Source of the DNA: Roseibacillus sp.
GTDB taxonomy: Bacteria; Verrucomicrobiota; Verrucomicrobiia; Verrucomicrobiales; Akkermansiaceae
Reading direction: 5' to 3'
Assembly: GCA_965242925.1 (NCBI GenBank)
Contig: CBDEUM010000030.1
Location: 256,001-320,000 of the forward strand
DNA: 64,000 nt
The position numbers and the translations under genes were made by a program. Positions 35,251 through 64,000 of this stretch are shown here, one piece after another (the first letter of the stretch is position 1; every line of letters begins with the position of its first letter). The notes under the pieces were generated by a model that ran no database searches, had not been told where the DNA came from, and saw only the letters and a list, made by a program, of their open reading frames with translations.

Positions 35251-35307
35251 TCCCGGCACCACTTCCCTGTTCCCGCTCCGGAAAGATGGACCGCCACCGG
35301 ACCTTCT

Positions 35308-41964: not shown

Positions 41965-41994
41965 TAACCTCCAACTCCTCCCGCCCCGAGCGCC

Positions 41995-47979: not shown

Positions 47980-47984
47980 GGCAC

Positions 47985-48304: not shown

Positions 48305-48332
48305 TTGACTTTCGCTTCCAAGACCCTACCCT
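48305..48332 (+). promoter_or_regulatory. Sigma70-like promoter of tRNA gene
   Basis: TTGACT-16 nt-TACCCT, 7 nt before tRNA 5' end. Confidence 0.55.
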
Positions 48333-48339
48333 CCGCCCC

Positions 48340-48433
48340 GGAGAGTGTCGCATGGCTGGTGCTGGCCGCGGTCTTCAAAACCGTTGAAACCTCGCAAGGG
48401 GTCTGGTGGGTTCGATTCCCTCCCTCTCCGCCA
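48340..48433 (+). tRNA. selC: tRNA-Sec (anticodon UCA)
   Basis: GCGGT-CTTCAAA-ACCGT anticodon arm, D-arm with 4-nt TGGT loop, long variable arm with GCAA loop, GGTTCGATTCC T loop, G discriminator and encoded CCA. Confidence 0.92.
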
Positions 48434-48656
48434 CTTTCTTCCCTAGTTTTATAGGTATCGAATCTCAGAGGCACCAATGGGGCACCAACTTTGTCCGCCC
48501 AGGGCAAGCAGAAAACCCCCGGAGCGCGGCGGCGGAAATGAAACGCCACGCCACCGGGGGCGTATCCCTGAAAAAATGTTTACGCCGTGATCCAGTGACC
48601 GGCGAGCCAGTCGAGGAGACAGTGGCGCGGTGCGCCTAGCTTCATGCCCTTGGAGT

Positions 48657-49250
48657 CTATCCCCTGTGTTGCTCGAGCAGGGTCATCATTAAAAGTGCAA
48701 CGAGGATACGGATTTGCTGTTGGGAATCTATTTCTGTAATAGACTCAATGGAGAATTTACCCTCCCAGAGGGCCGGCTTTTTCTTCAGGCGCATGACTGC
48801 GTTGCCATTGGAGTCAGTGATAATGTAGCTCGGGTTGGTGAAGTAGCCGGCAAAGATTCCGATGATGGGGATGCCGGAAAAAAGAGAGTCCAGAAAACGG
48901 ATCAGGACAGATTCCTCACGCACGGTGAACTCTGCAGGTTGAGCGGCATCATTGGGATAAATCTCGTAGTGCGCCCGCCACAGGGAACGCAATCCTTTTC
49001 TCCTGACACCGCCAAACTGGTTTCCCTCAGCATTACTGAAGTTGTAGGCGGCTGACCAGTCGATGACTTTATTAGCCTTGATTTCACAAAGTTTCTTTTC
49101 CTTTGTGTTATCGGTGAATACCTCGACGTGTTCCTTGAGTTTGAAGAGCTTCTGCTTGACGTAGAGCACAGGACTGCCGTCGGCATCGGTGACATAAAGT
49201 TGCGGTGAGGCTGCCAATATTTTCCGGGTGAGTTGTAAGGGATATTTCAT
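48657..49250 (-). CDS. LURP-one/scramblase (tubby C-terminal-like) family protein
   Basis: LYVKQKLFKLKEHVEVF, GGVRRKGLRSLWRAHYEI; repeated beta-strand pattern; visibly AT-richer than core. Confidence 0.65.
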   Translation of the reverse strand: MKYPLQLTRKILAASPQLYVTDADGSPVLYVKQKLFKLKEHVEVFTDNTKEKKLCEIKANKVIDWSAAYNFSNAEGNQFGGVRRKGLRSLWRAHYEIYPNDAAQPAEFTVREESVLIRFLDSLFSGIPIIGIFAGYFTNPSYIITDSNGNAVMRLKKKPALWEGKFSIESITEIDSQQQIRILVALLMMTLLEQHRG

Positions 49251-49568
49251 TTTCTTGATGAAAGGTGAACGGTGATTGCGGTGACGGCGTTGTTAACGAT
49301 CGGATTTCTTTTTGAAGGCATCTAAAACTTTCGCCTGATCAGTGGACGGGGCTTGGTTATGCCGGATTTCTTCTTTGTCGGAAAATCCTTATCCTTCTTG
49401 GCTTCGTTAACCTTCCCCAATCCAAACTCAAGCTCCTTTTCGAGTCCTGCTGCTGCTTCGCCATGTCGCTAAATGAACTAAACCTCGGGGAATAGAGCAA
49501 GAAGCCTCCTTGAAGTGGTTAAACCGAGAAACAAACCGGCAACGGGAGGAAACGCGGAGGGGGAAAGC

Positions 49569-49894
49569 AACCTCACCCCGCCCAGATCCCCGTGGATTTA
49601 ACCAGGGGGGTAATCGGTTGTCCTGGGCTCCACCCCTTTTACAATTTTTCTTCGGGGTGATGTGGCCTTTCGATGGGCTGACGCGCCCGTAGGGTTCCCA
49701 CGCTTGCCGACTGCGCCTGGGGGGTGGTAGTCGCCTTACAAAGGCAGCACCTATTTGTAATAGACTTGTCCGTGATGGGCGCCTTAGGGGCGCGCGTTGT
49801 CTTATAAACGAGTCACCCCGCCCCGATCCGCGTGGGTTGGGTCCGGCCCCCAACAAGCCCCTCTCCTCGCTTGCCCCCTGCGCCTGGGGGGTGG
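49569..49894 (+). repeat. Junction modules A1 (49569-49598), B1 (49701-49729), A2 (49813-49843), B2 (49860-49894)
   Basis: A=TCACCCCGCCC(C/A)GATCC(G/C)CGTGG(A/G)TT; B=CGCTTGCC(GA/CC)CTGCGCCTGGGGGGTGG. Confidence 0.85.
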
Positions 49895-50049
49895 CCGGGT
49901 TCATTTCCAGCCATTCTGGGTTGGGAATGACGCTATGAAAATCTTGGACTGCCCTCGTCGCTTCTTCGTGTCCACCCGGTTTTGATGGTGATCGGAAGGC
50001 CTTCCCTCATAGTCACCGCTACGCAGGGCTACGATAACTGCGCCAAGAC

Positions 50050-51945: not shown

Positions 51946-51972
51946 AGAGCCCCAGCCTGAGTGCACATGGAA

Positions 51973-52103
51973 GATCCGCGTGGCGTAGCCTCTCCCCGCT
52001 TGCCGACTGCGCCTGGGGGGTGGTAAGAAGGGTTCTACCCCCACCGTTCCCCGGTTCCTCAGCCTTCAGGAATCACGGACCGAAAAAACGATTCCCTAGC
52101 AGC
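51973..52103 (+). repeat. Junction modules P/B3 (51973-52025) directly followed by C1 (52037-52103)
   Basis: GATCCGCGTGGCGTAGCCTCTCCCCGCTTGCCGACTGCGCCTGGGGGGTGGTA, then ACCCCCACC...CCTAGCAGC. Confidence 0.88.
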
Positions 52104-52362
52104 AGGGCATTTCCGGAATGACGCGCAAAACCACCAGCAGATTCTACACCCTCGCAAGAGTCGAGCACAACAAAGCATTGTTGATTCATCGTTCCAGGCA
52201 AATTCATCGCCAGCAGGCTAGGTAAATCGTGTCATAATCACGAAAGCACGCATGCTGCTTCCATGCCCCGAACGGAATCACATGGACGCAAACACTGTAC
52301 ACGTACACACCATTGTTCAGTTGTCGAGTTTCCTAAACAAACCTTCGGACAGTTGATTGGCG

Positions 52363-53928
52363 ATGAGCCTTAATTCAGAAAGCATATTCAGCGAACACTT
52401 CCGAGAGACACGCCGCCAACTGCGTTCGTTGTGGCTGAAAATATGGGGCGGTGGATTCGCTATCGTCCTCATCGGATTTTGCTTGGCTTGGTTTTTCATC
52501 CAGCCAGCGCCTCCACGTGAGATACACATGGCGGTTGGTTCACCAGATGGTGCCTATTTTCAATTTGCGAACGCCTATGCAGACGAGCTAGCGAAGCAGG
52601 GAATCGTGCTTCATCTTCATACGAGCAATGGATCACTGGACGATTATGAATTACTGCAAAAAGATGACAAAATCGATTTGGCAATTGTTCAAGGCGGGAC
52701 TGCTGCAGCAAACAAACTTTCAGACCCCAACATCGAGTCACTGGCTAGTTTGTATCTAGAACCAGTCTGGGTATTTTACCGCAGCGTTGAACCTTACCCT
52801 GACCTGCGTTCTTTCAAGGGCAAAACAATTGCCACCGGTCGTTTTGGTAGCGGCACAGCAGCTTTGTCAGCGCTACTCTTAAAAGAAAATGGAATCACGT
52901 CATCCTCCACCAATTTCCTGCCGATTGGCGGTCTTGAATCAATGCGCCAACTCAAAGATGGATCCATTGATGCAGCATTTTTCGTCACATCCCCAAGTGC
53001 TCCCGCGGTCCAGTCGCTGGTACGGATTCCAGGCCTTCGTCTGCTCGATTTCGAGCGTCACGAGGCATACTCAAAACGGCACCCCTTTTTGTCAGCTGTG
53101 CAACTCGAAGAAGGTGTCGTTGACCTTGAGAGAAACTACCCAAAATCCAATGTCCACTTGATTGCGCCGGCTGCTAACCTCATCGCCAACAAACGTTTAC
53201 ACGACTCGTTAATTCCGGTGCTACTACGTGCAGCTGATACCGTTCACCAAAATGAGCCGAGCCTGTTTCAGCACCCCCAACTTCCATCTGCACAATACAT
53301 TGAATTCCCCTTAAACGAATCAGCAAGACTCTATTTTGAGTCTGGTCCACCACTGCTTCAGAAGTACCTGCCTTTTTGGGTTGCTTCGTTTTTCGATCGC
53401 GGAGCAATTCTGTTGCTGCCTGCCCTGACTTTGCTTTTTCCACTCTTCAAAATTGCCCCCCCTCTCTACCGTTGGCGAATTCGGTCGCGCATTTACCGCT
53501 GGTACAAACTACTCCGCGAAATGGAAACGGACCTGAGAGGTGAAGACAATATCGAGAAGCTGCGCGTTCATTGGAACACATTGCAAATCATGGAAACCGA
53601 ACTCGATGACCTCCAAGATGTTCCATTGGCATACATGCAGGAGTTCTACAGCCTCAGACTGCACATTGAATTCGTAGAAAGACGTGTCATTCGCAGGCTC
53701 AGACTGAATAACGATTCAGGTGAGCATTCGGATAGCGAGAATCCGACCGACACACAATCAGGGAAAGAAACGGATCCAAGTGCGACAATTCTGAGAAAAA
53801 CTGAAGAAACAATCGCGATCGATTCAACAGTCCCATTTGACGCCGCTCAAGCAACGGTGACCGACATTCAATCCGAACAAAGTGATTCATCCCCCAACAA
53901 CAGCGACGCATCCCCTAAGAATCAGTAG
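52363..53928 (+). CDS. TAXI family TRAP transporter solute-binding protein with C-terminal membrane extension
   Basis: IQPAPP..MAVGSPDGAY, SNGSLD, DLAIVQGG, SLYLEPVWVF, GSGT, GPPLLQKYLPFW, RSRIYRWY; visibly AT-richer codon usage. Confidence 0.85.
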   Translation: MSLNSESIFSEHFRETRRQLRSLWLKIWGGGFAIVLIGFCLAWFFIQPAPPREIHMAVGSPDGAYFQFANAYADELAKQGIVLHLHTSNGSLDDYELLQKDDKIDLAIVQGGTAAANKLSDPNIESLASLYLEPVWVFYRSVEPYPDLRSFKGKTIATGRFGSGTAALSALLLKENGITSSSTNFLPIGGLESMRQLKDGSIDAAFFVTSPSAPAVQSLVRIPGLRLLDFERHEAYSKRHPFLSAVQLEEGVVDLERNYPKSNVHLIAPAANLIANKRLHDSLIPVLLRAADTVHQNEPSLFQHPQLPSAQYIEFPLNESARLYFESGPPLLQKYLPFWVASFFDRGAILLLPALTLLFPLFKIAPPLYRWRIRSRIYRWYKLLREMETDLRGEDNIEKLRVHWNTLQIMETELDDLQDVPLAYMQEFYSLRLHIEFVERRVIRRLRLNNDSGEHSDSENPTDTQSGKETDPSATILRKTEETIAIDSTVPFDAAQATVTDIQSEQSDSSPNNSDASPKNQ

Positions 53929-53993
53929 GGCGTCGAGCCAAAAGAGCCGGTTCGACATCGCCTCATGGGTGTATCAGGCTCTGGTCAACACGC

Positions 53994-54114
53994 GTTGCAC
54001 CCCCACCTTCCCCGGTTCCTCAGCCTCCAGGAAACACGGCCCGAAAAAGCGATCCCCTAGCAGCCGATCCGCGTAGCGTAACCTCACCCTGCCCCGATCC
54101 TCGTGGATTGGGTC
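53994..54114 (+). repeat. Junction modules C2 (53994-54064), P and A3 (54066-54114)
   Basis: C2 matches C1 over ~67 nt with 1 indel and 5 substitutions; followed by GATCCGCGTAGCGTAACCTCACCCTGCCCCGATCCTCGTGGATTGGGTC. Confidence 0.88.
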
Positions 54115-54239
54115 ACTTGCTCCGCTTTGGGATTACGCGCTCCTGCTTGAGTCGATGCATCAGTAGTCCCACCAGGTCGCCTTCAGGTTCCCGGACCACT
54201 GGAGCGTGCTCAAGAACGTGATCGTGGTGAAGTGAACCC

Positions 54240-55130
54240 CTACCTGGGAATTACCACCCGCGACGGTTCGACAGTGGCTATAAAGTATCCGAGCGGCCTC
54301 TCATTCAGGTCGGCAATGAGCCACGTTGCCTTGGAAAATGTCCCACGGGTGAGCGTCCCACCTGCCGCGATCTCGGCGTAGTATTTCAGTCCTCCACCGT
54401 ACTCAGCCCAATAGAGCTTCACCGCTTCACTCCTTGTGTTCTCGATACTGACGCTGCTGAGGTTGCCTCCTCCCTTGGAGCGCGGCGGCGTTTCCGTGCC
54501 GGCGGAAACCCACTTCAACTCGACGCGCACGGTTTTCTTCTCTTTCGCTTTGGCCATCTTCTTCCTTGCAGCAGCCTCGGCAGCGACCTTGTCGAGATTC
54601 ACTCCCCTCACGATTTTCAGCTTCGGTAATGACCGGGCGAGGTTGCTGCAGCCCTCATCGGTCACCCCGGTCTGCCAGACGTAGAGCCGCTGCAGCTTCT
54701 GCAAGGATTCAAGATGGACGAGTCCGGCATCGGTGACCTTGGTGCCGTAGAGATTCAGGTATTCAAGATTGGTCAAACCCGCCAGATGGGCCATGGCTCC
54801 ATCACCAACCCCCGTTCTCTCCAGATGAAGGCGTCCCAGATTGCTGAGATTCGCTAGCAGCTTGAGGCCCTCATCGCTTGTCCGGGTCCCTCTCAGATTC
54901 AGGGCGAGGACGGATTCCCCAAGCAGAGCGACCTGCGCCAGGGTGTCGTCTCCCATCGACTTGCCCTTCCGCTGGAACTCAATCTCCCAGCCTCCTCCCA
55001 GGGAACGGACGATCCCACCTTCATCGCGAATCGCCTGCAGGGCTCCGTCATTAGCATGCGAAAACGTACTGCCCGACAGGATGATGACTGCACCGCAGAG
55101 GAAAAGGGGCTTTTGGATAGAGTGGCGCAT
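54240..55130 (-). CDS. Secreted leucine-rich-repeat protein with C-terminal VHL-beta-like domain
   Basis: LxxLxLxxTxVxDxGLxxL repeats; C-terminal RS...SVSIENTRSEAVKLYWAEYGG..KYYAEIAAGGT....TF....WLIAD. Confidence 0.75.
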   Translation of the reverse strand: MRHSIQKPLFLCGAVIILSGSTFSHANDGALQAIRDEGGIVRSLGGGWEIEFQRKGKSMGDDTLAQVALLGESVLALNLRGTRTSDEGLKLLANLSNLGRLHLERTGVGDGAMAHLAGLTNLEYLNLYGTKVTDAGLVHLESLQKLQRLYVWQTGVTDEGCSNLARSLPKLKIVRGVNLDKVAAEAAARKKMAKAKEKKTVRVELKWVSAGTETPPRSKGGGNLSSVSIENTRSEAVKLYWAEYGGGLKYYAEIAAGGTLTRGTFSKATWLIADLNERPLGYFIATVEPSRVVIPR

Positions 55131-55253
55131 TACCGGGTCAATGGCACGGCAGTGTACATGGTATTCCGCCCCTCGAACATCCTGCAAAGAGACGATCGCC
55201 GCATCTCCACAATTCCTGGTAGTTTTTAAGAAGAAATCAATTAGGATCAACTC

Positions 55254-56624
55254 GTGGATCATCATTTGCACTACACTCGGAGGCAGGTTCTTCGTTCGAG
55301 CGTGGCGCTGACGGGATTGACCCTCCCCAACTGGATGCAGATGCGGGCGCAGGCTGCGACCGAGCAGGCCCTCGAGACTGCTCCGAAGGCGAAGTCGTGT
55401 ATTGTCCTCTTCCTCTGGGGCGGATTGGCGCAGCAGGAGTCCTTCGATCCGAAGCCTGATGCCCAATCGGAGTATAAGAGCCGGTTCGGCGAGATCCCCA
55501 CCGCCACGCCCGGCATTCAATTCTGCGAATACCTTCCACTGCTGGCCAGGCATAGCGAGAAGATGGCAATCGTGCGGTCGGTGCACCACACCCAGGGAGC
55601 GCACGGAAGCGGACTCTACAAGAGCATGACCGGTCGCGATCCGATTGGCGGCACGAGAGCCCGCAATCGTGCCAACTGGCCGTCGCTGACCTCATTCCTT
55701 GGAAGGTTTCAGAAGCAGACTGCCGGTGTCCCCAATGCCATTCGCATGCCGCATACCATGTACGACAATGGCACACTCATGGCCGGTGACGATGCCGGCT
55801 GGCTGGGATCTGATTATGATCCGGTCATGCTTCGCATCCCCGACGGCACGCCCTATCAGGGGACGATCCGGCATACGGAGCCCGCACTCGATCTCACTCT
55901 CGGAGTCAAGTCGGACCGCTTCCGAAAGCGCCTCCTCATGCTGAACCAGCTCGAGCGCCGGCTCGCTGCGAAGGGGGCCGCTGAATACCAGGAACTGGAT
56001 CACTTCCGCCAGATGGCGGCCGACATGCTGGTCAGCTCGCCGGTCAAGGAGGCTTACGACCTCGAAAAGGAGGATCCCAGGCTGCGCGCGATGTACGGCG
56101 ATCACATGGGCGGACAGGGAATGCTTCTTGCCCGTCGGCTCACCGAGGTGGGAGTGCCGGTGGTTCAGGTGGTGTGTGCCGCCGAAGACCTTCAGGGCGG
56201 CTACTCGGACACATTTGACACCCATCACAATCACTTCCCCAAGATGAAGGAGCGACTCCTGCCCGTGTTCGACCAAGCCGCCTCCGCGCTTCTCACGGAT
56301 CTCGAACAGCGTGGGCAACTCGACGAAACCCTCGTTGTCTTCCTCACCGAGTTCGGACGCACGCCTAAGATCAATGGCAAGGGCGGACGCGATCATCATC
56401 CGGCCGTCTATTCCGTCGCGCTTGCAGGTGGCGGCATCCGGGGGGGGCAGGCCTACGGCAGCAGCGACAAGAATGCCGCCCTGCCCACCAGTGATGCCTG
56501 CACCCCGGCCGATCTCCACGCCACAGTCTACAAGGCGATGGGCATCGATCACCGGGCCGAGCTTCACGATCGGGAAGGACGCCCTTTCATCATCTGCGAG
56601 GGCAATCCGCTGCCACTGTTCTGA
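55254..56624 (+). CDS. DUF1501 family protein (Tat signal)
   Basis: TRRQVL, KAKSCIVLFLWGG, FDPKP, ARRLTEVGV, TEFGRTPKIN, GGRDH. Confidence 0.92.
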   Translation: MDHHLHYTRRQVLRSSVALTGLTLPNWMQMRAQAATEQALETAPKAKSCIVLFLWGGLAQQESFDPKPDAQSEYKSRFGEIPTATPGIQFCEYLPLLARHSEKMAIVRSVHHTQGAHGSGLYKSMTGRDPIGGTRARNRANWPSLTSFLGRFQKQTAGVPNAIRMPHTMYDNGTLMAGDDAGWLGSDYDPVMLRIPDGTPYQGTIRHTEPALDLTLGVKSDRFRKRLLMLNQLERRLAAKGAAEYQELDHFRQMAADMLVSSPVKEAYDLEKEDPRLRAMYGDHMGGQGMLLARRLTEVGVPVVQVVCAAEDLQGGYSDTFDTHHNHFPKMKERLLPVFDQAASALLTDLEQRGQLDETLVVFLTEFGRTPKINGKGGRDHHPAVYSVALAGGGIRGGQAYGSSDKNAALPTSDACTPADLHATVYKAMGIDHRAELHDREGRPFIICEGNPLPLF

Positions 56625-56638
56625 TTCGATCTCAATTC

Positions 56639-59068
56639 ATGTCCCCTGAAGTCCGCCTGTCACTTACTCTTTGTTTCGCTCTGAGCGCAACGACCCCCGC
56701 GCAGGAGGTCCGGTGGAGCAGCGACGAAGAGATTGCGCTGATCGGTCCCCATGCCCGCCACCAACTCGTCCTGATGTCACCCCGGCATGACCTGACACGG
56801 AAGGCGACATACACCTGTGATCCCGAGGGCATTGTCGAAGTAGACCAATCTGGCTACCTGCGTCCCCTGCGCAACGGGACCGCTACCATCACCGCCATCT
56901 GGAAGGACACTCAGAGCGCTGGCCGAACGGTCACGGTGGAACGGCATCATGAGGCAATCCCGGTGAGCTTCGCCAACGAGATCGTCCCTCTCTTTACCCG
57001 TCATGGCTGCAATGGTGGAAGCTGTCACGGAAAGGCGGGAGGGCAGAACGGCTTCCAACTCTCCCTCTTCGGATTCGAACCGTGGAAAGACAGGGATAAT
57101 ATTTCGGAGGGACGTAGTCGCCGCATCTTCCAAGCGGCTCCGAAACACAGCCTCCTTGTATTGAAGGCTTCCGGTCAACTTCCGCACAAAGGCGGATCCC
57201 GCCTGCACAAGGACAGTGACGACTATCGCCTCCTCGTGCGATGGATCGGTCAAATCAGTTCCACCTCCGACAATAGAAAAGAGACGCCCGGGGTCGAAGG
57301 AATCGTGGTCATGCCTTCGGAGCGTCTCGCAGCGGCCGGGGTGTCGCAGCAACTGCGCGTCACCGCTCACTTTACGGATGGATCGACCCGCGACATTACC
57401 CGCGCATCGGTTTACGAGTCCAACAATGAGAACATGGCGGAGGTGGAGCTTGATGGCCTGGTCCATCTCAAGGACAAGACCGGCACTGCTTCTGTCATGG
57501 TGCGGTTCCAGGAACACGTCACAGTTTTCCGGGCAACCATCCCTCTGGGCGTCCCCGTCGAGAACATGCCTGGACCGACTAATCTGATCGACGAGCATGT
57601 CTTTTCGAAATTACGGAGACTGGGGCTTCCTCCTTCCGGTCTTTGCGACGAAGGGACATTCCTGCGCCGCGTGACCGTCGATATTGCCGGTCGCCTTCCC
57701 AACCTGGAAGAAACCAGGGCGTTTCTCGCCGATGAGTCACCTGACAAGAGGTCGCGCATCATTGATGCTCTCCTGAACGGCAGCGGTTACGCCGACTACT
57801 TCGCCGGCAAGTGGGCTTCCATCCTGCGCAACCAGCGCCGGAATGATCGGCACAGACCCGATACTTACGCCTTTCACGAGTGGATTCGCCAGTCGCTGCA
57901 GGCGAATCGGCCCTATGACGGATTCGTCCGCGATATCCTGACCGCGACGGGTACGATTCGCGATAATCCTCCCGTAGCGTGGTACCGCAACGTGGGGGGC
58001 GAAAAGGAGCGCATGCAGGACATGGGACAGGTGTTCCTGGGAGTGCGGTTGCAATGTGCCCAGTGCCATCATCATCCCTACGAAAAGTGGAGTCAGGACG
58101 ATTATTATGGCCTCGCCGCCTTCTTCACCACCCTGGAGAATAAACAGGCCCGCCCCGGGGAAGGGGCTTTCGTCCATCGCTCCAAAATCGCTCTATCAAA
58201 GAACCCCAGCAGCGAACAAGATCTCGGTCCGGCCCTGCCAGGGCGAGGTTCACTGGAGCTTTCCCCCGGGGATGATCCCCGTCAGGCCCTGGCTGACTGG
58301 GTGGTCGATCCGGAGAACCCCTACTTCGCCCGCATGATCGCCAATCGTTACTGGAAGCATTTCTTTGGACGAGGCCTGGTCGATCCCGAGGACGACATGC
58401 GCACTACAAATCCTCCCACTCATCCTGCCCTTCTCGCCGCCCTTGAAGAGCATGTCATTAAGAGCAAGTTCGACCTGAAGGCGCTCATCCGGCTCATCTG
58501 CAACAGCGGCACCTATCAGCGCAGTAGCATCCCTAATGAGCATAACGGCGAGGACCAGCAAAACTATTCGCGCTTCTACCCCCGCCGCCTGCAGGCTGAG
58601 GTCCTGGCGGATGCCATCAACCAGCTCACCAATGGATCCGATTCCTTCCGGGGGCAGCCCGCGGGAGCACGGGCCGTGCAACTGCCCGACGATCAGTTTG
58701 CCCGCGAGTTTCACTTTCTCGCCATCTTCGGCCGGCCTAATATGGCCAGTGCCTGCGAATGCGAACGGAGTTCCAGCTTCAGCCTGGCCCAGGCAGTGCA
58801 ACTGGTGAACTCAAAGGAAACCAGTGCTAAGCTCGCCTCTCCCCTCTCCCGGGTTTCCCTTCTCCTCCGCGATGACGACCGCTCTGACCAGAGCCGGATC
58901 GAGGAACTCTACCTGAGGGCCTACTCCCGCCCCTCCACTTCCGAGGATCTAGTGATCGCCAAAAGCCACCTCGACGAGGCCAGCGCCAATCCAACGGCCC
59001 GGCGGGCCTCCTACGAGGATCTGGTCTGGGTGCTCCTCAACAGCCGGGAATTCATCTTTAACCACTGA
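56639..59068 (+). CDS. DUF1549/DUF1553 protein with BIG2 Ig-like domains
   Basis: GCNGGSCHGK, FLRRVTVDIAGRLP, LQCAQCHHHPYEKW, NPYFARMIANRYW, CECER, LLNSREFIFNH. Confidence 0.92.
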   Translation: MSPEVRLSLTLCFALSATTPAQEVRWSSDEEIALIGPHARHQLVLMSPRHDLTRKATYTCDPEGIVEVDQSGYLRPLRNGTATITAIWKDTQSAGRTVTVERHHEAIPVSFANEIVPLFTRHGCNGGSCHGKAGGQNGFQLSLFGFEPWKDRDNISEGRSRRIFQAAPKHSLLVLKASGQLPHKGGSRLHKDSDDYRLLVRWIGQISSTSDNRKETPGVEGIVVMPSERLAAAGVSQQLRVTAHFTDGSTRDITRASVYESNNENMAEVELDGLVHLKDKTGTASVMVRFQEHVTVFRATIPLGVPVENMPGPTNLIDEHVFSKLRRLGLPPSGLCDEGTFLRRVTVDIAGRLPNLEETRAFLADESPDKRSRIIDALLNGSGYADYFAGKWASILRNQRRNDRHRPDTYAFHEWIRQSLQANRPYDGFVRDILTATGTIRDNPPVAWYRNVGGEKERMQDMGQVFLGVRLQCAQCHHHPYEKWSQDDYYGLAAFFTTLENKQARPGEGAFVHRSKIALSKNPSSEQDLGPALPGRGSLELSPGDDPRQALADWVVDPENPYFARMIANRYWKHFFGRGLVDPEDDMRTTNPPTHPALLAALEEHVIKSKFDLKALIRLICNSGTYQRSSIPNEHNGEDQQNYSRFYPRRLQAEVLADAINQLTNGSDSFRGQPAGARAVQLPDDQFAREFHFLAIFGRPNMASACECERSSSFSLAQAVQLVNSKETSAKLASPLSRVSLLLRDDDRSDQSRIEELYLRAYSRPSTSEDLVIAKSHLDEASANPTARRASYEDLVWVLLNSREFIFNH

Positions 59069-59117
59069 ATCCGGCTGCTGCAGGGTGTCTCTCGGCAGAG
59101 CAATCCACCACCCCACA

Positions 59118-61529
59118 ATGCCTTTCAAGACAACAAGGATTGTACCGCTGCAACTCGTCGCCCTGGTTACTGTCACCGGCTCTCTCCCCGCCCAGCTTCC
59201 TGTTCCGGTTCTGGAATCCATTTTTCCTGCGGGAGGCCAAGCCGGAACCACCGTGGAGGTCACCGTTACCGGGGAGGAACTGGAGGGGGCCACCGGGCTT
59301 CTCTTTTCCACTGCCCGACAAGGGTTCACCATCACCAGCGCAGCCCTTCCCACCACCGTCTCTCCCGGGAATCCCAATCGCTTCCGCCTGCAGATTCCGG
59401 CAAATGCCAAGCCTGGGTGTTACGGTGTCCACGTCCAATGTGCCCGGGGCCTGAGTTCCCCACGTGCCTTTGTGGTAAGCAACAGACCGGAGCTCATTGA
59501 ATCGGGATCAAATACAAGCAGGGACCGGGCCATGAAGATTTTTCCTGGAATCATCGTCAACGGACAGGCAGATGAAAGTGCCAGTGATATCTATCGCCTC
59601 GATCTGAAGGCTGGCGACAAAATCCGGATCGCCTGCGAATCAGAAGCACTCGCCTCCAGGCTCAGTGCAGGACTGGTTCTCTACGACGAGGCCGGACTCG
59701 AACTTGACCGGGATCGCAACAACTCCGATCGCAATGCGATGGTCGCGATGTCCACGCCCGTGGATGGGAGCTATTTCCTCCATGTCTCGGACTTCACCTA
59801 CCGCGGAGGAATCGGCTACACCTATCGTCTCGAGGTCGAACGCGGACCACAGATTTTCTTCCTCTTTCCTCCTGCCGCTCAGTCGGACAAGAACAGCACC
59901 TTTACTCTCTACGGACGCAATCTCCCCGGCAGTGATCCTTCCAAGCGGGTGCAGGTGGGCAACCGTCTACTGGAAACCCTCCAGATCAAGGGGTCGGTCC
60001 ACTCGCTCGAAGAATTCAAGGGTCATGGCCGCATCCGTCAGGCCATGGTGCCGACCAGGTCTTACCGACTTCAGGACGGAAACGATGTCTCGAATCCGGC
60101 ACCGCTGGGCATTGCGTCCGCACCTGTTGTTCTCGAGACCGAGACAGGAACCGACGGGCAACCCCAGAGTGTTCAAATCCCCTGTGAGGTCCAGGGCCGT
60201 TTTCACCGCACCCGCGACCTCGATCGTTACCGCTTCGAAGCCAGTAAGGATGATGAACTCTGGATTGAGTGCCTCGCCCAGCGCATCGGCACCACCGTCG
60301 ACCCAGTCGTTACAATCGAAAGGGTCATCCGGAATGAGCAGAGCGGAGAAACCGCCCAGCAGGCAGGCTCTGTCGACGACCTGGGGGATGACACCGGAGA
60401 ACGCAGGTTTCCACTTCCCTGTGGTGATGCTGCCATGTCCTTCAAGGTTCCCGAGGATGGGACCTATCAGGTCAGTATCCTCAACTTGGCTGGCCGCGGA
60501 GGAATCGACCAGGTCTACCGCTTGGCCATTCGCAAACCACTGCCAGGGTTCGAACTGCTGGCGATTCCCTGGCGCCAGGTTCACATCAAAAACGAAGTGG
60601 ATATCCTTACCCCGGTCCTCCCCCCGGGAGGAAAAACCGAGATCCGGGTCTTTGCCATGCGCCAGGGCGGATTTCAGGGAGAGATCGAACTCAAGATCGA
60701 TGGCCTGCCACCCGGGGTAGAGTGTCCCCCGGTCTCAATGGGTGGTGGCCGGGACTCCATCGTAACGCTCACCGCAGATCCCGGCACCGAACAGTGGGAT
60801 GGCCTCATTTCCGTGCAGGGAACCAGTGGGGGCCTGACGCGAACCGCCAGGATCGGAATGCTTCTCCACCGTGCGAAGGATTTCAGCAAGGAAACCTACT
60901 CCACGGCACTGGCACGAAGCCTCTCTCTTTCCATACCCGGAACGGGGAACCCCTTATCGATCATGATTCCCGGAGAACAGCGCTTTGAGATCACAATCGG
61001 CGACACCCTCGAGATCCCCGTGAAACTGCTCCGGCACCAACCCGGAGAAGAGGTCATCATCAGGTCGAAGGGACTCCCGCACAAGCACCCTGAGCTGAAG
61101 ATCCCCGCGAATTCCGGAAACGGATCACTCGTCATCGCCTCTGGCAAGCGGGACGAATTCCCAAGGGAGCCTGGCACCTGGACATTTCGGCTCATGGCGG
61201 AGGCAGCCTTCCAGCACCAGCCGGGTCCGGCCGCTGTCCTTCATGCCCGGGCTGGGCAAGCCCGCCTCAAGACCGAGGAACGAAAGCTCCTTGAAGAAAT
61301 CCAGGCTTCCCCCTCACTAGGCGCACCGGAAGCCCGCGAGGAAGCAGCGCTTCGCGCAGTGGAAGCGGCCCGAAGACTACCTGTCCTCCAGTCAGCGATA
61401 CGGGCCACCTCCGAGCGAATCAAGGTGATCTCGGAACGCACGCGAGCCAGCAGTCGCAAGATCCAGGTATTCTCCATTCCGCTGAGCATCACGGTCAAGC
61501 CACGTGCCACGGAAGAACCCCCTGAATAA
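59118..61529 (+). CDS. PPC (pre-peptidase C-terminal) domain protein of PVC DUF1501 clusters
   Basis: IFPAGGQAGTTVEVTVTG start, D.YR...K.G, YRGG..Y.YRL, DLDRYRF motifs; late coiled coil. Confidence 0.8.
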   Translation: MPFKTTRIVPLQLVALVTVTGSLPAQLPVPVLESIFPAGGQAGTTVEVTVTGEELEGATGLLFSTARQGFTITSAALPTTVSPGNPNRFRLQIPANAKPGCYGVHVQCARGLSSPRAFVVSNRPELIESGSNTSRDRAMKIFPGIIVNGQADESASDIYRLDLKAGDKIRIACESEALASRLSAGLVLYDEAGLELDRDRNNSDRNAMVAMSTPVDGSYFLHVSDFTYRGGIGYTYRLEVERGPQIFFLFPPAAQSDKNSTFTLYGRNLPGSDPSKRVQVGNRLLETLQIKGSVHSLEEFKGHGRIRQAMVPTRSYRLQDGNDVSNPAPLGIASAPVVLETETGTDGQPQSVQIPCEVQGRFHRTRDLDRYRFEASKDDELWIECLAQRIGTTVDPVVTIERVIRNEQSGETAQQAGSVDDLGDDTGERRFPLPCGDAAMSFKVPEDGTYQVSILNLAGRGGIDQVYRLAIRKPLPGFELLAIPWRQVHIKNEVDILTPVLPPGGKTEIRVFAMRQGGFQGEIELKIDGLPPGVECPPVSMGGGRDSIVTLTADPGTEQWDGLISVQGTSGGLTRTARIGMLLHRAKDFSKETYSTALARSLSLSIPGTGNPLSIMIPGEQRFEITIGDTLEIPVKLLRHQPGEEVIIRSKGLPHKHPELKIPANSGNGSLVIASGKRDEFPREPGTWTFRLMAEAAFQHQPGPAAVLHARAGQARLKTEERKLLEEIQASPSLGAPEAREEAALRAVEAARRLPVLQSAIRATSERIKVISERTRASSRKIQVFSIPLSITVKPRATEEPPE

Positions 61530-61530
61530 C

Positions 61531-61620
61531 CCGCCAGAACCGGAAACATCCCTATTTTTATAGGGTTTATATCCAACAGAGGACCACCCCTGTACGCAGA
61601 ACCCCCCGGGAACGCAGGCA
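61531..61620 (+). repeat. Degenerate copy of tRNA-Sec 3' end/flank (att-like)
   Basis: CCGCCA..CCCTATTTTTATAGGG..CAGAGGACCA..GCAGAACCCCCCGG versus 48428 CCGCCA..CCCTAGTTTTATAGGT..CAGAGGCACCA..GCAGAAAACCCCCGG. Confidence 0.6.
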
Positions 61621-61663
61621 CCATTGCCCCCCGCGCCTCGGCTGTGCTAGGAATCGCGGTGCT

Positions 61664-61762
61664 ATGAAGATGCTCGTCCTGCTGTTTGCCGCGCTACTGG
61701 TCGCGGGTTGTGGTGAGAACGCGGCGAGCAACTCCGCGTTCACGTCAGCTTCTAGGCATTGA
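61664..61762 (+). pseudogene. Lipoprotein signal-peptide stub (MKMLVLLFAALLVAGCGE...) behind B-like promoter
   Basis: Lipobox VAGC, stop after 32 aa. Confidence 0.6.
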
Positions 61763-61806
61763 AGTTTGCAGCAGCTTCAGATTATCGTGACGCTTCGTTC
61801 TTAGCC

Positions 61807-62022
61807 ATGAACCCGCGATCAAACATCCAGCATCCAGCTCGACTCAATGTCGTCACACTCTTCGCCTGCATCTGGGCCTGCGTCGCAACGCCCCTCCACT
61901 CTGCTCCAACTCTCACCACCGATCGCATCCTCCAAAAAGCCCGATCGCACTGGGCGTTCCAACCGCTCAAGTTCGATCTCCCACCGCCCAACTCCAACTC
62001 CGGCTACCAAGGCGCCGAGTGA
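61807..62022 (+). pseudogene. N-terminal fragment of a DUF1549-type protein
   Basis: Signal-like region then ARSHWAFQPL motif; stops at abrupt GC-to-AT switch. Confidence 0.55.
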
Positions 62023-62356
62023 AGAAGTTAAGCCTGTCGAAGAAAAACAGCAGGAGGTTAAGCCTGAAGAACCCGTTGCTGAAACTGAAAAACCAGAACT
62101 GACACTGAAGGAGAGGGTAGTTGGAAAGTGGGATTTCGGAGGAGTTACCCTTATCTTTGATAAAAATGGAACGGCCAAGGCTATGAGAGGAGGAAATTTA
62201 ATAGGTGGTCGAACTTGGTTTATCAAAGATGGAAAGATTCATACAATTAGTGATGGCCCAGCTAAAACAGTGGTGATTTATGTAATGAATGAAGATGGTA
62301 ATTTGCAACATCCCTCTCGCGGTGAAGCAAAAAGAATTAAAACCGAAGACAACTAA
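62021..62356 (+). pseudogene. AT-rich lipoprotein-like body lacking its own start
   Basis: EEVKPVEEKQQEVKPEEPVAETEKPE linker then small beta domain (VVGKWDF); no ATG/RBS of its own. Confidence 0.55.
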
Positions 62357-62391
62357 ACCAACCCGCTCCACCACTTGAACGCCGCAGGGTT

Positions 62392-62473
62392 GTTGCACCC
62401 CCACCTCCCGGGCCGCCATTCAGCCCAGCCGGCAAAAGGAAAATCCTAGCATTCATTGAAGGAAAATCCTAGC
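62392..62473 (+). repeat. Divergent module C3 with duplicated 15-bp end AAGGAAAATCCTAGC
   Basis: GTTGCACCCCCACCT shared with C2; perfect direct repeat at 62436-62450 and 62459-62473. Confidence 0.7.
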
Positions 62474-62611
62474 GTTCCTCGTTCCACTTGTTCGGTCTCG
62501 ATATCAAGGACGTCAACTACGCCTGCCCCAACGGGGTCACCAAGCTGACAGCTCGTCAACGGCCTGCTGAAGAACCCGGTGTGGAAAACCGCAACCCGGA
62601 AGGCCGCCCTG

Positions 62612-64000
62612 ATGTGTAGCGTTCGCCGAATGTCGTGGTTCTCCCGGACCACGCTGGCCGGGTTCACGGTGTTGGTTGCGGCGTTGGCGGGATCGTGCCG
62701 GATCTCGACGGCCGCCGGGCCCAATCTCGTCGCCAACGGTGGCTTGGAAACCGTGGATCCGAAGTACACCGACCGGCCACGGGGGTTCCGACCCGGCCGG
62801 GTCGGCAAGGCGTTCTCCGAGATGACCTGGACATCACCGGGCCACAACAGCCGGCGATGTGTTTCGGTCACGACGAAGGACTCGTCGGGCCTGGGCTACT
62901 GGCAGACCCTGGTGACCGTGGAGCCCCGGACCACCTACACCATTTCACTGGACTACCGGGCCAGGGCCGCGGCGCTGGAGACGGGCATCCCACACTTCCC
63001 TCGTAGTCGACCGGGCGGTCCGAATCTCGAGCTGGGCATGCTGCCGTCGGATGCCACCGTCGCCGGGCAATCGACGACCTGGTCGGATATCGGGATCGCC
63101 CTGGATCCCGTCGGGGGCATCTTCCTGCCGTTGGCGACCGAGTGGTCCCGGTTCCGGCACACGTTCAAGACGCGGGCGGGACAGACCCGGCTGGTCGTCA
63201 AGTTGCGTCTTTGTCATTACGCTCAGCAGGTTTGGTTCGACAACCTCTCTGTTGTCGAAGGCGAGTTGCCGAGGCCCGGGATGGTGGCCGATCCACTGTG
63301 GGCAGCCGGCGACACCACGCCACCGGCGGTCTTCCGTCCTTCGCCGCTTCCGAACACGAAGGCCGCCCGCGATACGATCATCGGGGCCGTCTTCTCCGAA
63401 GACGGGTCGGGCGTCGATCCGAAATCCGCCCGGGTGCTGCTCGACGGAAAGGACGTCACCTCGCTGGCTGTGATCAACGCCGGCGGTCTCCGTCTCTCAC
63501 CGGACCATCCGCTTGCCGAGGGCCCGCATCGCGTCTCGGTTTCGATTGCCGATCGCGGCGGCCTCCGCAGTAACACGCTTGCCTGGCAGTTCGGCGTCGG
63601 TCGAACGCTGCGGAATACGCTGGTAATGAAGGTTGCGAAGGACGTGAAAACCTGGTCCACCCGACTCAACAGCGAGCCATTTTTCCCGATCGGGATCTAT
63701 GCCTACTCCTGCCAACCCGGCGACGGCCGTTTTCGGGCCGATCATCTTCGGCAGGCGGTCGACGCCGGTTTCAACATCGTGTTCAACACGATCGAGACCC
63801 GACAGGGGCTCGACATCGAACTGGCCCACGGCATCATGGGCACGCTGAACATCACGGCCGGATTGAAACACTGCACCGACCCCGAGGCGGCCGCGGTGGC
63901 ATTGATGAAGATGGGGCAGGGCCGCTTCGCCGATCATCCCGGGGTGGTTGCCTTCTGGGCCGACGATCCGGAGAACGTCGAGAACTCGATGGGGACCCCG
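62612..64000 (+). CDS. Secreted carbohydrate-active-like protein (CBM4/9-like, Ig-like, glycoside hydrolase-like barrel); runs off window
   Basis: Manual translation, open to window end: signal peptide, NLVANGGLE...VWFDNLSV, DTTPP Ig-like, FFPIGIYAY, HPGVVAFWADDPE. Confidence 0.7.
   Translation, partial: MCSVRRMSWFSRTTLAGFTVLVAALAGSCRISTAAGPNLVANGGLETVDPKYTDRPRGFRPGRVGKAFSEMTWTSPGHNSRRCVSVTTKDSSGLGYWQTLVTVEPRTTYTISLDYRARAAALETGIPHFPRSRPGGPNLELGMLPSDATVAGQSTTWSDIGIALDPVGGIFLPLATEWSRFRHTFKTRAGQTRLVVKLRLCHYAQQVWFDNLSVVEGELPRPGMVADPLWAAGDTTPPAVFRPSPLPNTKAARDTIIGAVFSEDGSGVDPKSARVLLDGKDVTSLAVINAGGLRLSPDHPLAEGPHRVSVSIADRGGLRSNTLAWQFGVGRTLRNTLVMKVAKDVKTWSTRLNSEPFFPIGIYAYSCQPGDGRFRADHLRQAVDAGFNIVFNTIETRQGLDIELAHGIMGTLNITAGLKHCTDPEAAAVALMKMGQGRFADHPGVVAFWADDPENVENSMGTP

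Follow-up and report, generated by a model that had tools for sequence, protein, structure and literature searches.

Genus-specific mosaic repeats join unrelated genes in a variable island downstream of tRNA-Sec in a marine verrucomicrobium

In enterobacteria, BIMEs combine a few motif types in mosaics, and the Neisseria intergenic mosaic elements (NIME: dRS3/RS, Correia) form mosaic repeat arrays between genes. The BOX elements of Streptococcus pneumoniae are modular as well, with boxA, boxB and boxC in variable combinations; BOX is not known to be linked to the exchange of gene units. On Acinetobacter plasmids, pdif modules rely on inverted pairs of 28-bp XerC/XerD sites and on a recombinase encoded elsewhere. 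In minimal mobile elements (MME), as presented in PMC3787668, gene content varies between fixed flanks via homologous recombination. For the additive islands of Alteromonas, PMC4898812 describes partial tRNA repeats, integrases, integrons and illegitimate recombination.

Here we analysed a stretch of 64,000 nt (the window) on a 375-kb contig (C30) of Roseibacillus sp., a marine verrucomicrobium; other contigs of this genome are given as C4, C14 and so on, and congeners as G008, G012 and so on. We read 48434..64000 as the proximal 15.6 kb of a flexible ('additive') island of ~39 kb at tRNA-Sec, a patchwork in which each unit holds one to a few genes and has its own history (Table 1). The anchor was correctly predicted, since ARAGORN and Rfam both place tRNA-Sec there, but the array is not confined to 48434..64000: profile searches followed it past the window end to C30:343347. 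No partial direct repeat of tRNA-Sec was detected within C30:304471-345000. The segment downstream of the tRNA matches C4:67279-67385 (88%), C4:140892-141011 (82%) and G012:C235:15276-15472 (75%), and is paralogous to the DNA adjoining tRNA-Ser(tga) and tRNA-Met on C4. The PL10-like and TAXI-like genes lie between modules as originally described. Their names hold less well, because the Pfam matches (Pec_lyase, 36 bits; NMT1_3) are accompanied by NCBIfam scores below the cut-offs (27.6 versus 189.8 bits; TRAP_TAXI, TIGR02122, 61.5 versus 84.35 bits). The TAXI-like protein has no close homologue in 19 congeners (the best match in a congener, seen in 1 of 19, reaches 27% identity; the best in the order reaches 41%). 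The four-gene block is kept in many congeners (G012:C236 81%, G015:C51 75%, among others).

Table 1. Features of the tRNA-Sec island in the window (window positions).
Feature	Position	Strand	Evidence and remarks
tRNA-Sec (anticodon TCA)	48340..48433	+	ARAGORN; Rfam RF01852 at 59 bits; conserved anchor, proximal island border
tRNA-downstream segment	48406..48615	+	hairpin and truncated 3' end of a minus-strand gene
LOR ORF, 197 aa, GC 49%	48657..49250	-	weak LURP-one-related domain, Pfam PF04525 E 1.7e-07; cargo unit
Module A1	49569-49599	+	nhmmer; runs on into ~130-150-nt 'A-long' element (49569..49700)
Module B1	49697-49726	+	repeat finder, profile search, shuffle test; orphan, no gene start behind
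Module A2, carries core GATCCGCGTGG	49813-49840	+	repeat finder, profile search
Module B2	49860-49893	+	profile search; 160 nt upstream of PL10-like ORF
PL10-like exported protein, 631 aa	50050..51945	+	weak pectate-lyase fold, Pfam PF09492 E 4.8e-09; between B2 and P/B3
Core GATCCGCGTGG, P (CGTAGCC, GTAG-tagged), module B3	51973..52022	+	B3 orphan, C1 directly after
Module C1	52039-52103	+	repeat finder, blastn, profile search
TAXI-like solute-binding protein, 523 aa, GC 49%, C-terminal extension	52357..53928	+	Pfam NMT1_3; between C1 and C2
Module C2	53996-54063	+	repeat finder, blastn, profile search
Core variant GATCCGCGTAG, P2/A-left, core variant GATCCTCGTGG, A-right (module A3)	54066..54115	+	
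Four-gene block	54240..61529	.	Pfam; kept at 65-81% in many congeners
LRR protein, start uncertain	54240-55604	-	Pfam
DUF1501	55254-56624	+	Pfam
Big_2/DUF1549/DUF1553	56639-59068	+	Pfam
TIG/PPC	59085-61529	+	Pfam
Multi-copy leader fragment with degenerate B (~61624)	61548..61719	+	by eye and copies elsewhere
169-aa ORF, 3' part low-GC	61847..62356	+	no Pfam match; fragment 62007-62089 multi-copy
Divergent C-like element	62392..62460	+	by eye; 5' block recognisable, remainder diverged
712-aa ORF start	62579..64000	+	runs to C30:320717; no Pfam match; island continues past window

The predicted modules A, B, C and P were all recovered by repeat finder and profile searches, every copy in the window on the plus strand. 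The repeat finder returned three copies of A (49573, 49813, 54084; 31 nt, 77-90% identical), three of B (49688, 49855, 51984; 42 nt, 67-88%), two of P (51973, 54066; 27 nt, 85%) and two of C (52039, 54000; 65 nt), the latter nearly alike as expected (88% without gaps; blastn gives 91% across 67 nt with a single gap). Profile searches placed B3 at 51987-52022 and A3 at 54079-54111, and 54066..54115 is a tandem of a ~30-nt unit. Compared with dinucleotide-shuffled versions of the window, the A core gave 3 matches with 0.00 expected and the B core 3 with 0.03 expected, a count that none of 100 shuffles reached. The 48-kb core of the window (1-48433) was free of profile matches to any module, again as originally noted. 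The proposed degenerate B at 61624 and divergent C at 62392 are visible by eye and faint in sequence comparison; the C gave a 15-nt blast match, and its 5' block matches with four mismatches at C30:318394. 'A-long' was aligned with three other long copies; it contains a promoter-like TTGTCC-16-TACAAT at 49618-49645, in a scan where promoters overall were not above shuffles.

A and B have diverged from one C-rich unit of ~30-40 nt (CCTCnCCCCGC...). P/B carries a GTAG tag as in REP elements and a weak palindrome, and the A-P-B tandem often stands immediately before the ribosome-binding region and the start codon in genes for exported proteins, where it might act as a portable regulatory leader. 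Uniform orientation and the position just before start codons could alternatively mean a purely transcriptional role. C measures 69 nt, is conserved at both ends but variable between them, and is present in every kind of intergenic region. As originally noted, the modules do not resemble attC sites: they have neither R nor L boxes, nor the hairpin that attC forms as a single strand. They also fail the tests for MITEs, lacking terminal inverted repeats (the C 5' block forms one inverted pair in all the sequence examined), and for classical REPs. No Rfam family matched them, Alifold gave no conserved fold on 54 copies, and single-strand folds ranged from z -1.3 to +2.8.

BOX elements share the variable combination of modular units; here, unlike in BOX, the modules are associated with gene-unit boundaries. 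Short sites bound gene units in pdif too, whereas the modules are direct, C-rich and dissimilar to dif. Like the BIMEs of enterobacteria, and like the GTAG-type REPs characterised in PMC3733652, they are short intergenic repeats of few motif types, mosaic, oriented and clustered; those elements can act as recombination substrates, and here the GTAG tag of P/B stands next to a weak C/G-rich palindrome. Unlike them, the modules occur in tens rather than hundreds of copies, have no convincing palindrome and no RAYT, concentrate in variable regions at unit boundaries and are, as A-P-B, fused to gene starts. Neisseria NIME and MME likewise combine intergenic mosaic repeat arrays with gene exchange between related lineages, but the MME crossovers described in PMC3787668 lie in conserved flanking genes, whereas here many apparently lie inside short repeats. 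The marine Alteromonas islands, in the account of PMC4898812, are also tRNA-linked hotspots with cassette sets that differ among close relatives, near-identical cassettes despite diverged cores, and niche-interacting cargo; in the present island tRNA repeats and integrases are absent, and the junctions carry a shared kit of short modules. CALIN, as outlined in PMC4889954, resemble the array in their unrelated units, a recurring short element in one orientation, the absence of a nearby integrase and the recurrence of units in other genomes in different orders. They differ in that the array has neither R/L boxes, attC hairpin nor IntI, its units reach several genes and its breakpoints vary.

The modules had been tied to this island. 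However, profile searches of the whole genome found 9 copies each of A and B at three loci, the island and two others, and 26 copies of C on 10 of the 42 contigs. All families occur genus-wide (15 of 19 congeners, versus none of 21 genomes outside the genus). Thus, they are not a device of the selC island. The genome-wide scatter of ordinary REPs, named beforehand as counter-evidence, is seen in part: C is dispersed, yet strongly clustered in variable regions, and 17 of the 26 copies have a neighbour within 5 kb (simulation mean 1.3, maximum 9 in 5000 trials). The regions that bear modules are variable. In the closest relative, G008 (core 91-93% identical), nothing exceeds 76% identity to C30:320001-340000, and synteny with it breaks off at 92522 on C14 and immediately past tRNA-Leu(caa) on C34. 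Contigs of relatives frequently terminate in modules.

The array indeed appears to be integrase-less. Pfam scans (31 and 32 ORFs) revealed no recombinase in or beside the arrays, and tblastn detected no integrase remnants in them (best E-value 0.07). The genome holds only three PF00589 genes, none close to arrays: two Xer-like and one 411-aa integrase 105 kb away. IntI was not found, and neither Y1 transposases nor RAYT occur in this genome; Y1 transposases are present in 4 of 20 genus genomes, flanked there by other repeats. No circular or excised form was seen in the assembled contigs, a type of data blind to such forms. The proposed tRNA-linked array keeps its unrelated units and its lack of a local recombinase, but not its restriction to selC.

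Units were compared with core identity baselines of 81-85% for G012 and 72-78% for G009 and G014. High-identity units (92-99%) occupy different contexts in congeners: the PL10 unit (96-97% to G012:C235:12998-15140), a 140-aa unit (94%), a symporter-C-SDR segment on C23 (96%), a DUF1501 operon (99%), a sulfatase (95% and 92%) and a GSDH-like gene (97.5%). All comparison genomes are MAGs, several partner contigs measure just 2-7 kb and G012 has Ns near a junction; transfer between species may look commoner than it is if mis-binning or strain mixing occurred. Seven shared segments could be delimited on both sides. Of their 14 ends, by raw count, 8 lie inside a module or at its edge in one or more genomes, 1 comes within 32 nt of a module and 5 have no detectable module. 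Intergenic DNA harbours both modules and breakpoints. The anticipated coincidence of breakpoints with modules was largely found, and the breakpoints keep to no single fixed nucleotide. The PL10 tract common to G012 starts 16 nt past B2, passes the core by 31 nt and stops inside B3; in G012 the unit also ends core-P-B3, with B3 truncated, and units on G012:C235 are delimited by three successive cores. Further breakpoints lie in CCTCnCCCCGC or CACCCCCA motifs away from the core. The sulfatase unit begins 5 nt ahead of its ATG and ends ~10 nt past its stop between unrelated flanks, and the 336285-336781 segment also lacks detectable modules at its ends, indicating that another process moves genes too.

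Truncated, hybrid or orphan modules are frequent. B1 and B3 are orphans, and at C34:309327-309460 A-P-B is followed by merely 14 nt of coding sequence. The leader fragment at 61548..61719 consists of the degenerate B, a ribosome-binding region, about 19 codons from the start (ATG 61665) of a lipoprotein signal peptide and a break; it recurs at 88-96% (C34:307299, C23:13100, C38:88897, C30:341839, C30:321051) and is the scar of a lost gene start. At the array borders homologous recombination is active, judging from one sharp tract: G012:C235 and C4 are 99-100% identical for ~4.8 kb from the 5' end of tRNA-Ser, after which identity falls to 78-84% within 300 nt.

We give about an even chance to the view that the modules are mosaic repeats of the BIME/NIME kind within an additive flexible island, acting as short homology patches for recombination. 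Shared short motifs flank otherwise unrelated genes across genus members, so that incoming congener DNA could join resident DNA by homologous or short-homology recombination. Crossover patches would be the modules or a conserved tRNA gene, and units would be added, replaced or deleted, with scars remaining. The original prediction had invoked a recombinase encoded elsewhere or RecA; homology-driven, RecA-type recombination fits better as the presumed agent, and a dedicated recombinase less well. For RecA to exchange DNA efficiently, however, patches of 8-70 nt with 80-95% identity are on the short side.

It is doubtful, though conceivable, that the modules are passive REP/BIME- or MITE-like elements or portable expression signals with no part in gene movement. 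As selfish or structural repeats, or as leaders with a signal-peptide start or an RNA-end element, they would accumulate in tolerant island intergenic DNA, and the breakpoint match would be a by-product of shared location. C copies do sit, by crude ORF calls, between genes that converge (9), diverge (6) or run in tandem (11), like interspersed repeats; P/B has the tag and weak palindrome of GTAG REPs, which PMC3733652 reports as abundant in a verrucomicrobium, and modules, like ordinary repeats, are frequent break points of relatives' contigs. A complete A-P-B copy is followed by an ATG after 10-17 nt, and metagenome contigs most often continue B into '...AGGTAGGTATCAGGAATGAAGAAAGCCC' (loose ends). 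Moreover, modules at the orthologous sites L024 and L025 of two species persist at about flank identity and are thus not visibly hyper-recombinogenic. However, the copies are few (9, 9 and 26) and clustered in variable regions, terminal inverted repeats and a conserved fold are lacking, and a promoter would have no target at the 9 of 26 C copies between convergent genes. In the C23/G012:C269 segment, with its 96% identical cargo, different module types diverge exactly past a shared motif. At one end our genome continues into B and G012 into A after a common GCGGGG(A/T)GAGG; at the other, ours enters the C 5' block and G012 a reverse B after TTGC(A/G)CCCCCA. Passive co-location does not predict this, and we read both ends as crossovers where different modules share a motif of 8-13 nt.

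A dedicated site-specific cassette system seems unlikely. On this view, the crossover site of a recombinase encoded elsewhere would be the 11-nt core GATCCGCGTGG within the imperfect palindrome CCCCGATCC-GCGT-GGATTGGG, and cassettes would be joined core to core as integron cassettes are at attC. The core is constant at many junctions while its contexts assort freely: all four combinations of left (A-left, L_A; C end, L_C) and right (A-right, R_A; P/B, R_P) were found, with L_A/R_A 8, L_A/R_P 4, L_C/R_A 2, L_C/R_P 1 and other/R_P 3 in this genome and relatives, and L_A/R_A 33 and L_A/R_P 34 in metagenome loci. Direct cores at 51973 and 54066 bracket the unit P-B3-C1-TAXI-C2, as successive cores do on G012:C235, modules within arrays face one way, and 2 of the 17 long metagenome loci scanned (L165, L172) have tyrosine recombinase genes no more than 4 kb from an A module. 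Against this, the PL10 tract overruns the core and other breakpoints lie away from it, truncated and hybrid modules are numerous, the right arm of the palindrome is absent in about half of the sites (R_P class), most C copies have no core, and no recombinase co-occurs with the modules, neither the distant 411-aa integrase nor the sparse Y1 transposases. A mosaic created by chimeric assembly or mis-binning at repeats is very improbable: the genomes are MAGs with contig breaks at modules, ambiguous bases adjoin the G012:C235 junction, and, among the 80 genome-collection rows listed for the C motif, 16 are small contigs whose MAGs bear the label of another phylum, but independent contigs (4 runs, 4 studies) span the window junctions in the same order (A2-B2-PL10-P-B3; B3-C1-TAXI; TAXI-C2; C2-P-A3-LRR-DUF1501), the window sits on one long contig, the G012:C235 insertion is tied to tRNA-Ser via 75 nt of unique sequence with flanks at baseline identity, and the sulfatase unit lies inside 87-kb and 29-kb contigs of diverged background.

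We therefore return to mosaic repeats as homology patches. The island downstream of tRNA-Sec is variable, and genus-specific repeats join unrelated genes in it. Most likely, these modules are small patches of shared sequence at which related marine bacteria swap genes.

The original prediction had placed short modules of one orientation (A, B, C and the leader P) at most junctions between unrelated cargo genes downstream of tRNA-Sec. With a repeat finder, all claimed copies other than a degenerate B and a divergent C were recovered on the plus strand at the places given (see table). The A core and the B core each matched the window three times, versus 0.00 and 0.03 matches expected from shuffled sequences, and C1 and C2 share 91% identity over 67 nt with one gap. 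No modules had been noticed in the 48-kb core, and profile searches gave 0 matches of any module in window 1-48433. The degenerate B near 61624 and the divergent C near 62392 are recognisable by eye but were recovered only weakly by search, and the labels 'PL10' and 'TAXI' of two cargo genes are based on weak similarity. As a whole, the observation was confirmed.

Positions and ends of modules and units, identities of shared units, and junctions bridged by metagenome contigs (positions without a contig name refer to the window; C23, C30 and C34 are contigs of this genome, G-numbers related genomes and X-numbers metagenome runs)
Feature	Position	Strand	Detail
tRNA-Sec	48340-48433		
A copies	49573, 49813, 54084	+	repeat finder
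B copies	49688, 49855, 51984	+	repeat finder
C copies	52039, 54000	+	repeat finder
P copies	51973, 54066	+	repeat finder
Full tandem A-P-B	C30:327797-327865		
Full tandem A-P-B	C34:309327-309392		
Full tandem A-P-B	C23:9021-9088		
PL10 unit, ends			left at most 16 nt from B2; right inside B3
140-aa unit, ends			left at first base of A; right at first base of next A in G012
C23 segment, ends			both in modules
DUF1501 operon, ends			0 and 11 nt from C copies in G009
Sulfatase	beyond window		95% G009, 92% G014
DUF1501 operon	beyond window		99%
497-nt piece	beyond window		99%
GSDH-like gene	beyond window		97.5%
A2-B2-PL10-P-B3			bridged: X5 record 12, X2 record 5
B3-C1-TAXI			bridged: X2 record 6
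TAXI-C2			bridged: X8 record 29
C2-P-A3-LRR-DUF1501			bridged: X2 record 7

The arrangement itself is found in independent data. The 7-kb core of the finding is present in at least 16 DNA runs (20 runs in all, including 4 RNA runs with at most 8% of words, from 14 studies). With few differences, the region is covered by contigs from four runs, each of a different study, which bridge its junctions in the order of the window; otherwise, metagenome contigs break at modules. The 15 'joints' listed from assembled contigs have sides of 19-55 nt that match other module copies, and have no bearing on excision.

A, which is made up of a left part and the core GATCCGCGTGG, and B have both diverged from a single C-rich unit of ~30-40 nt that starts with (T/G)A(A/G)CCTC(A/T)CCCCGC. 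P consists of the core GATCCGCGTGG followed by the start of B, CGTAGCC. The genome contains three full tandem A-P-B copies. Those on C30 and C23 end ~10 nt before the start of an exported-protein ORF; the one on C34 is followed by only the first 14 nt of exported-protein coding sequence and then by a C copy. A can also run on as an 'A-long' element of ~130-150 nt, of which four copies were aligned. C measures 69 nt; its 5' block TGCACCCCCACCTTCCCCGG and its 3' block AAAAGCGATTTCCTAGCAAT are conserved, its centre is variable. According to crude ORF calls, 9 of the 26 C copies lie between convergent genes, 6 between divergent genes and 11 in tandem settings, where 9 are co-oriented with the genes and 2 antisense. 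The core GATCCGCGTGG is flanked by two types of left and two types of right context, which are found in all four combinations, together with many truncated hybrids. Scars are common: orphan B1 and B3 copies, a truncated B3 in G012, the A-P-B copy with only 14 nt of coding sequence, and a leader fragment at 61548-61719. On the module-rich contig C23, a 105-aa ORF with 43% GC (11159-11841) lies between two similar 5'-truncated direct C copies and is, after TAXI, a second example of a gene of low GC content with C on both sides. A 469-aa ORF at the end of this contig (260-1666) encodes two retroviral-type aspartyl protease domains.

The window spans C30:256001-320000. The genome (4.58 Mb, 42 contigs, ~60% GC, 90% complete) harbours nine copies of A and nine of B, all located at C30:305.5-336 kb, on the 15-kb contig C23 or at C34:309.3 kb, whereas C is present in 26 copies on 10 of the 42 contigs. 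These C copies are clustered: for 17 of them, another copy lies within 5 kb, versus an expectation of 1.3 and at most 9 in any of 5000 simulations. The array had been given as 48434..64000; it continues past the window to C30:343347. A 141-nt C2-P-A3 probe matched 15 of 19 congeners, with at least 21 matches in each of four, and 0 of 21 genomes of other genera; its matches are often arranged in runs on one strand, at spacings of 2-5 kb, or lie at contig ends. Searched genome-wide and in relatives, the modules are clustered in variable regions, but they are a genus-wide feature and not a device of the selC island. The exact C 5' block was found in 84 stretches of a collection of species-representative genomes, and 64 of the 80 matches listed are titled Roseibacillus sp., Akkermansiaceae or Verrucomicrobiae/-ales. 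Sixteen of the 80 listed (L062-L127) come from MAGs that bear the labels of other phyla, including Deltaproteobacteria, Chloroflexota, Planctomycetota and Thermoplasmata, and lie on contigs no longer than 27 kb; these are probably mis-binned, repeat-rich island contigs. The A motif occurs on at least 130 metagenome contigs, and viral contigs gave 0 matches to the C 5' block and 0 to the A motif.

If identity is compared with that of the core, the island appears as a mosaic. Measured on window 28500-48440, core identity to this genome is 91-93% in the closest relative G008, 81-85% in G012 and 70-78% in G009, G014 and G010. The four-gene block 54239-61529 is ordinary in this respect (81% to G012, 65-75% to others), while identity to G012:C235 is 96-97% in the PL10 unit (49859-52014). 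That G012 contig is syntenic with C4 of this genome at ~80-85% and has an insertion of 8.1 kb immediately upstream of tRNA-Ser(tga), which comprises a third gene, the 140-aa unit found here at C30:327.8 kb (94%) and the PL10 unit. The TAXI-like gene (49% GC) has no close homologue in 19 congeners, where the best match, in one of them, reaches 27% identity; within the order, the best match reaches 41%. For C30:320001-340000, nothing above 76% identity was found in G008, and single units of this stretch are near-identical in distant congeners, each on a different contig.

Module arrays follow tRNA-Sec in this genome and tRNA-Leu(caa) in both C34 and G012:C179, with differing cargo, and adjoin tRNA-Ser(tga) in G012:C235 only. 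In G002, an A module lies 290 nt after tRNA-Sec, and the C14 region of this genome with three C copies is non-syntenic with G008. Two features of additive flexible genomic islands are present: tRNA hotspots with differing unit sets in relatives, and near-identical units over diverged cores (92-99% versus 72-85%). A third hallmark, a partial direct repeat of the tRNA gene, was absent, the best tRNA-Sec fragment inside the island being 16 nt long (E 26). The locus is an additive flexible island except for the integrase or tRNA-repeat hallmark.

Several further features of the region were recorded. Directly upstream of tRNA-Sec (41995-47979) lies a 1994-aa ORF with extensin-like, PD40, squalene-hopene-cyclase-like and weak pectate-lyase domains, and G008:C59 ends just inside it, at about window 42326. 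One sequence of ~200 nt follows three tRNA genes (Sec, Ser-tga and Met; window 48406-48615, C4:67279-67437 and C4:140892-141011); within it, a GC-rich hairpin occurs together with the 3' end of a gene on the minus strand that encodes ~180-220 aa and has no assigned family, and the window copy is truncated. At C30:333297-335776, which shares 99% DNA identity with G009:C48:2957-5053, the 698-aa DUF1549/DUF1553 ORF of G009 is split into overlapping ORFs of 421 and 409 aa by a frameshift or an assembly error. Window 61484-62751 shows a summed contig depth of 21-532 in four metagenomes, versus ~2-25 in neighbouring bins, and its fragment 62007-62089 has further copies at C38:89637 (98%) and in G012:C228 (92%). 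Within the community, this small ORF region of low GC content is in part a highly repeated element.

Exchange of units with breakpoints at modules had been predicted. Seven shared segments were delimited at both ends. In at least one genome, eight of the 14 ends fall within a module or at its border; one further end lies 32 nt from an A-like copy, and five are without a detectable module. The most telling case is the segment shared by C23 and G012:C269, in which the cargo between the ends is 96% identical. At one end, the common sequence GCGGGG(A/T)GAGG continues into B in this genome and into A in G012; at the other, the common TTGC(A/G)CCCCCA continues into the C 5' block and into reverse B, respectively. 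That the modules are purely passive repeats is a reading that we regard as rather doubtful.

The arrays had further been described as integrase-less. Pfam searches of 31 and 32 ORFs around them revealed neither a recombinase nor a transposase in or beside the array. Integrase remnants were not detected in the arrays either (best tblastn E 0.07), and no direct repeat of tRNA-Sec marks an att scar inside the island. Three tyrosine recombinases (PF00589) are encoded in the genome, two of them Xer-like and one a 411-aa gene ~105 kb from the island; none lies within 100 kb of an array, as judged with a generic, not IntI-specific profile on a 90% complete genome. Among 86 ORFs from 17 long module-bearing metagenome loci, we found two tyrosine recombinases (at L165, beside tRNA-Leu(tag), and at L172), one reverse transcriptase and one primase-polymerase. 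Classical integrative islands thus also carry modules, but not regularly. At C29:366157-366721, a 104-aa fragment comes after tRNA-Leu(tag). It shares 99% identity with the N-terminal end of a full-length 422-aa integrase, which adjoins tRNA-Leu(tag) on the 481-kb metagenome contig L165; the C29 locus is an integrative island in decay and has no relation to the module arrays. A site-specific system built around the core GATCCGCGTGG would suit the combinations of left and right contexts beside it, but no recombinase gene lies next to the arrays, and we hold such a system to be improbable.

G012:C235:15216-20050 and C4:67524-62700 of this genome are 99-100% identical over ~4.8 kb, against a background of 78-84%. 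The tract starts exactly at the 5' end of tRNA-Ser and drops to 78-84% within 300 nt inside core genes; it represents a recent, clean import through recombination between two species-level lineages. Judged from these alignments, homologous recombination is demonstrably active at an array border. Modules at orthologous positions persist between two species with about the identity of their flanks; at one C copy, the change was a partial replacement and not a clean insertion or loss.

We then compared the modules with known repeat families. As had been stated, they do not resemble attC sites: RYYYAAC/GTTRRRY boxes 40-140 nt apart were found at no module in 48434-64000 by regular-expression search of both strands, and the only four box pairs lie inside an ORF at 61986-62063. 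Folds of both strands of C1, C2, A3 and B3 with DNA parameters gave no stable attC-like hairpin (z of -1.3 to +2.8 versus shuffles). Box scan and single-strand folding being both negative, attC features were rejected. Sites of the pdif type are 28 bp long (XerC-spacer-XerD) and bracket each unit as inverted pairs. The modules here repeat in direct orientation, and A contains a palindrome with 8-nt arms and a 4-nt spacer. Alifold detected no consensus structure on 54 C copies, either strand, and the central 34 nt of 71 unique C copies showed a weak, inconsistent hairpin signal (mean z -1.05, 46% below -1). Only tRNAs, and no module family, were returned by Rfam at a permissive threshold for window 48000-64000 and loci L003 and L004. 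A MITE with the C 5' block as terminal inverted repeat was rejected: a scan for inverted pairs at most 1.5 kb apart with at most 4 mismatches found one facing pair in this genome and all loci, clean empty and filled C sites were not found, and the one polymorphic C site is a partial replacement. In 48300-54400, scans gave three sigma-70 promoter-like sites versus 2.9 expected and nine terminator-like sites versus 6.2 expected, and are not informative apart from one site inside A-long.

For REP elements, the published criterion was a GTAG (or CGTC) tetranucleotide at one unit end (PMC3733652). Such a tag exists: CGTAGCC stands before B at P1/B3 (51984), in all three full A-P-B copies and at most junctions with P/B to the right of the core, but not at B1 and B2. 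REP elements further have an imperfect palindrome of 20-40 bp; in B3, CCTCTCCCC can pair with GGGGGGTGG (-5.9 kcal/mol as DNA; z +0.7 versus shuffles). A high copy number over the chromosome was not observed: the 4.58 Mb contain 26 copies of C and nine each of A and B, in clusters, and PF01797 (RAYT, Y1 transposase) had 0 matches in this genome. Y1 transposases are encoded in 4 of 20 genomes of the genus; the six loci examined carry other GTAG repeats and no match to A, B or C better than E 0.046. At four loci (L268, L270, L272 and L273, from G017, G009 and G010), IS200/RAYT-like Y1 genes are flanked by tandem GTAG-tagged palindromic repeats of other families, which makes them true REPtron-like loci in some species of the genus. 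The GTAG tag is the only feature of the classical REP definition that the modules clearly show. Among the papers listed on repeats in Roseibacillus and on REP elements in Verrucomicrobia, no published account of these modules was found, and for the latter subject PMC3733652 was the sole relevant one.

Of the original interpretation, an integrase-less, tRNA-linked array of unrelated units exchanged at modules stands, but the repeats are genus-wide, the junctions heterogeneous, and some units move without modules. Our best reading, to which we give about even weight, is a BIME/NIME-like repeat kit in an additive flexible island, where modules and conserved tRNA genes would serve host recombination as short homology patches. 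A stronger proposal, which we hold to be unlikely, is that the modules evolved as a genus-wide 'linker' system, an integron analogue running on host recombination that makes accessory genes exchangeable without an element-encoded recombinase. Exported-protein genes would then share one format, with A-P-B as their leader and C as their spacer, and the C-rich or G-rich motifs CCTCnCCCCGC, CACCCCCA and the core GATCCGCGTGG would be preferred crossover points, either as substrates of an unlinked site-specific enzyme or as hot spots of the Chi or G-quadruplex type.

Among the organisms that degrade algal polysaccharides, marine Verrucomicrobia are major players, and which substrates each strain can use depends on its accessory genes for exported enzymes, binding proteins and sulfatases. 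At this locus, genes are exchanged one by one among the species of one genus at tRNA-linked hotspots, where no integrase, transposase or phage gene was seen and a shared kit of short repeats sits at the joins between pieces. If the repeats are passive, they are still a new repeat family that breaks assemblies and also appears to send small contigs into wrong bins. If they are crossover substrates, they would provide a cheap, host-driven route to cassette-like gene flow, which could explain flexible islands in other free-living bacteria and offer sequence markers for tracking gene flow in metagenomes.
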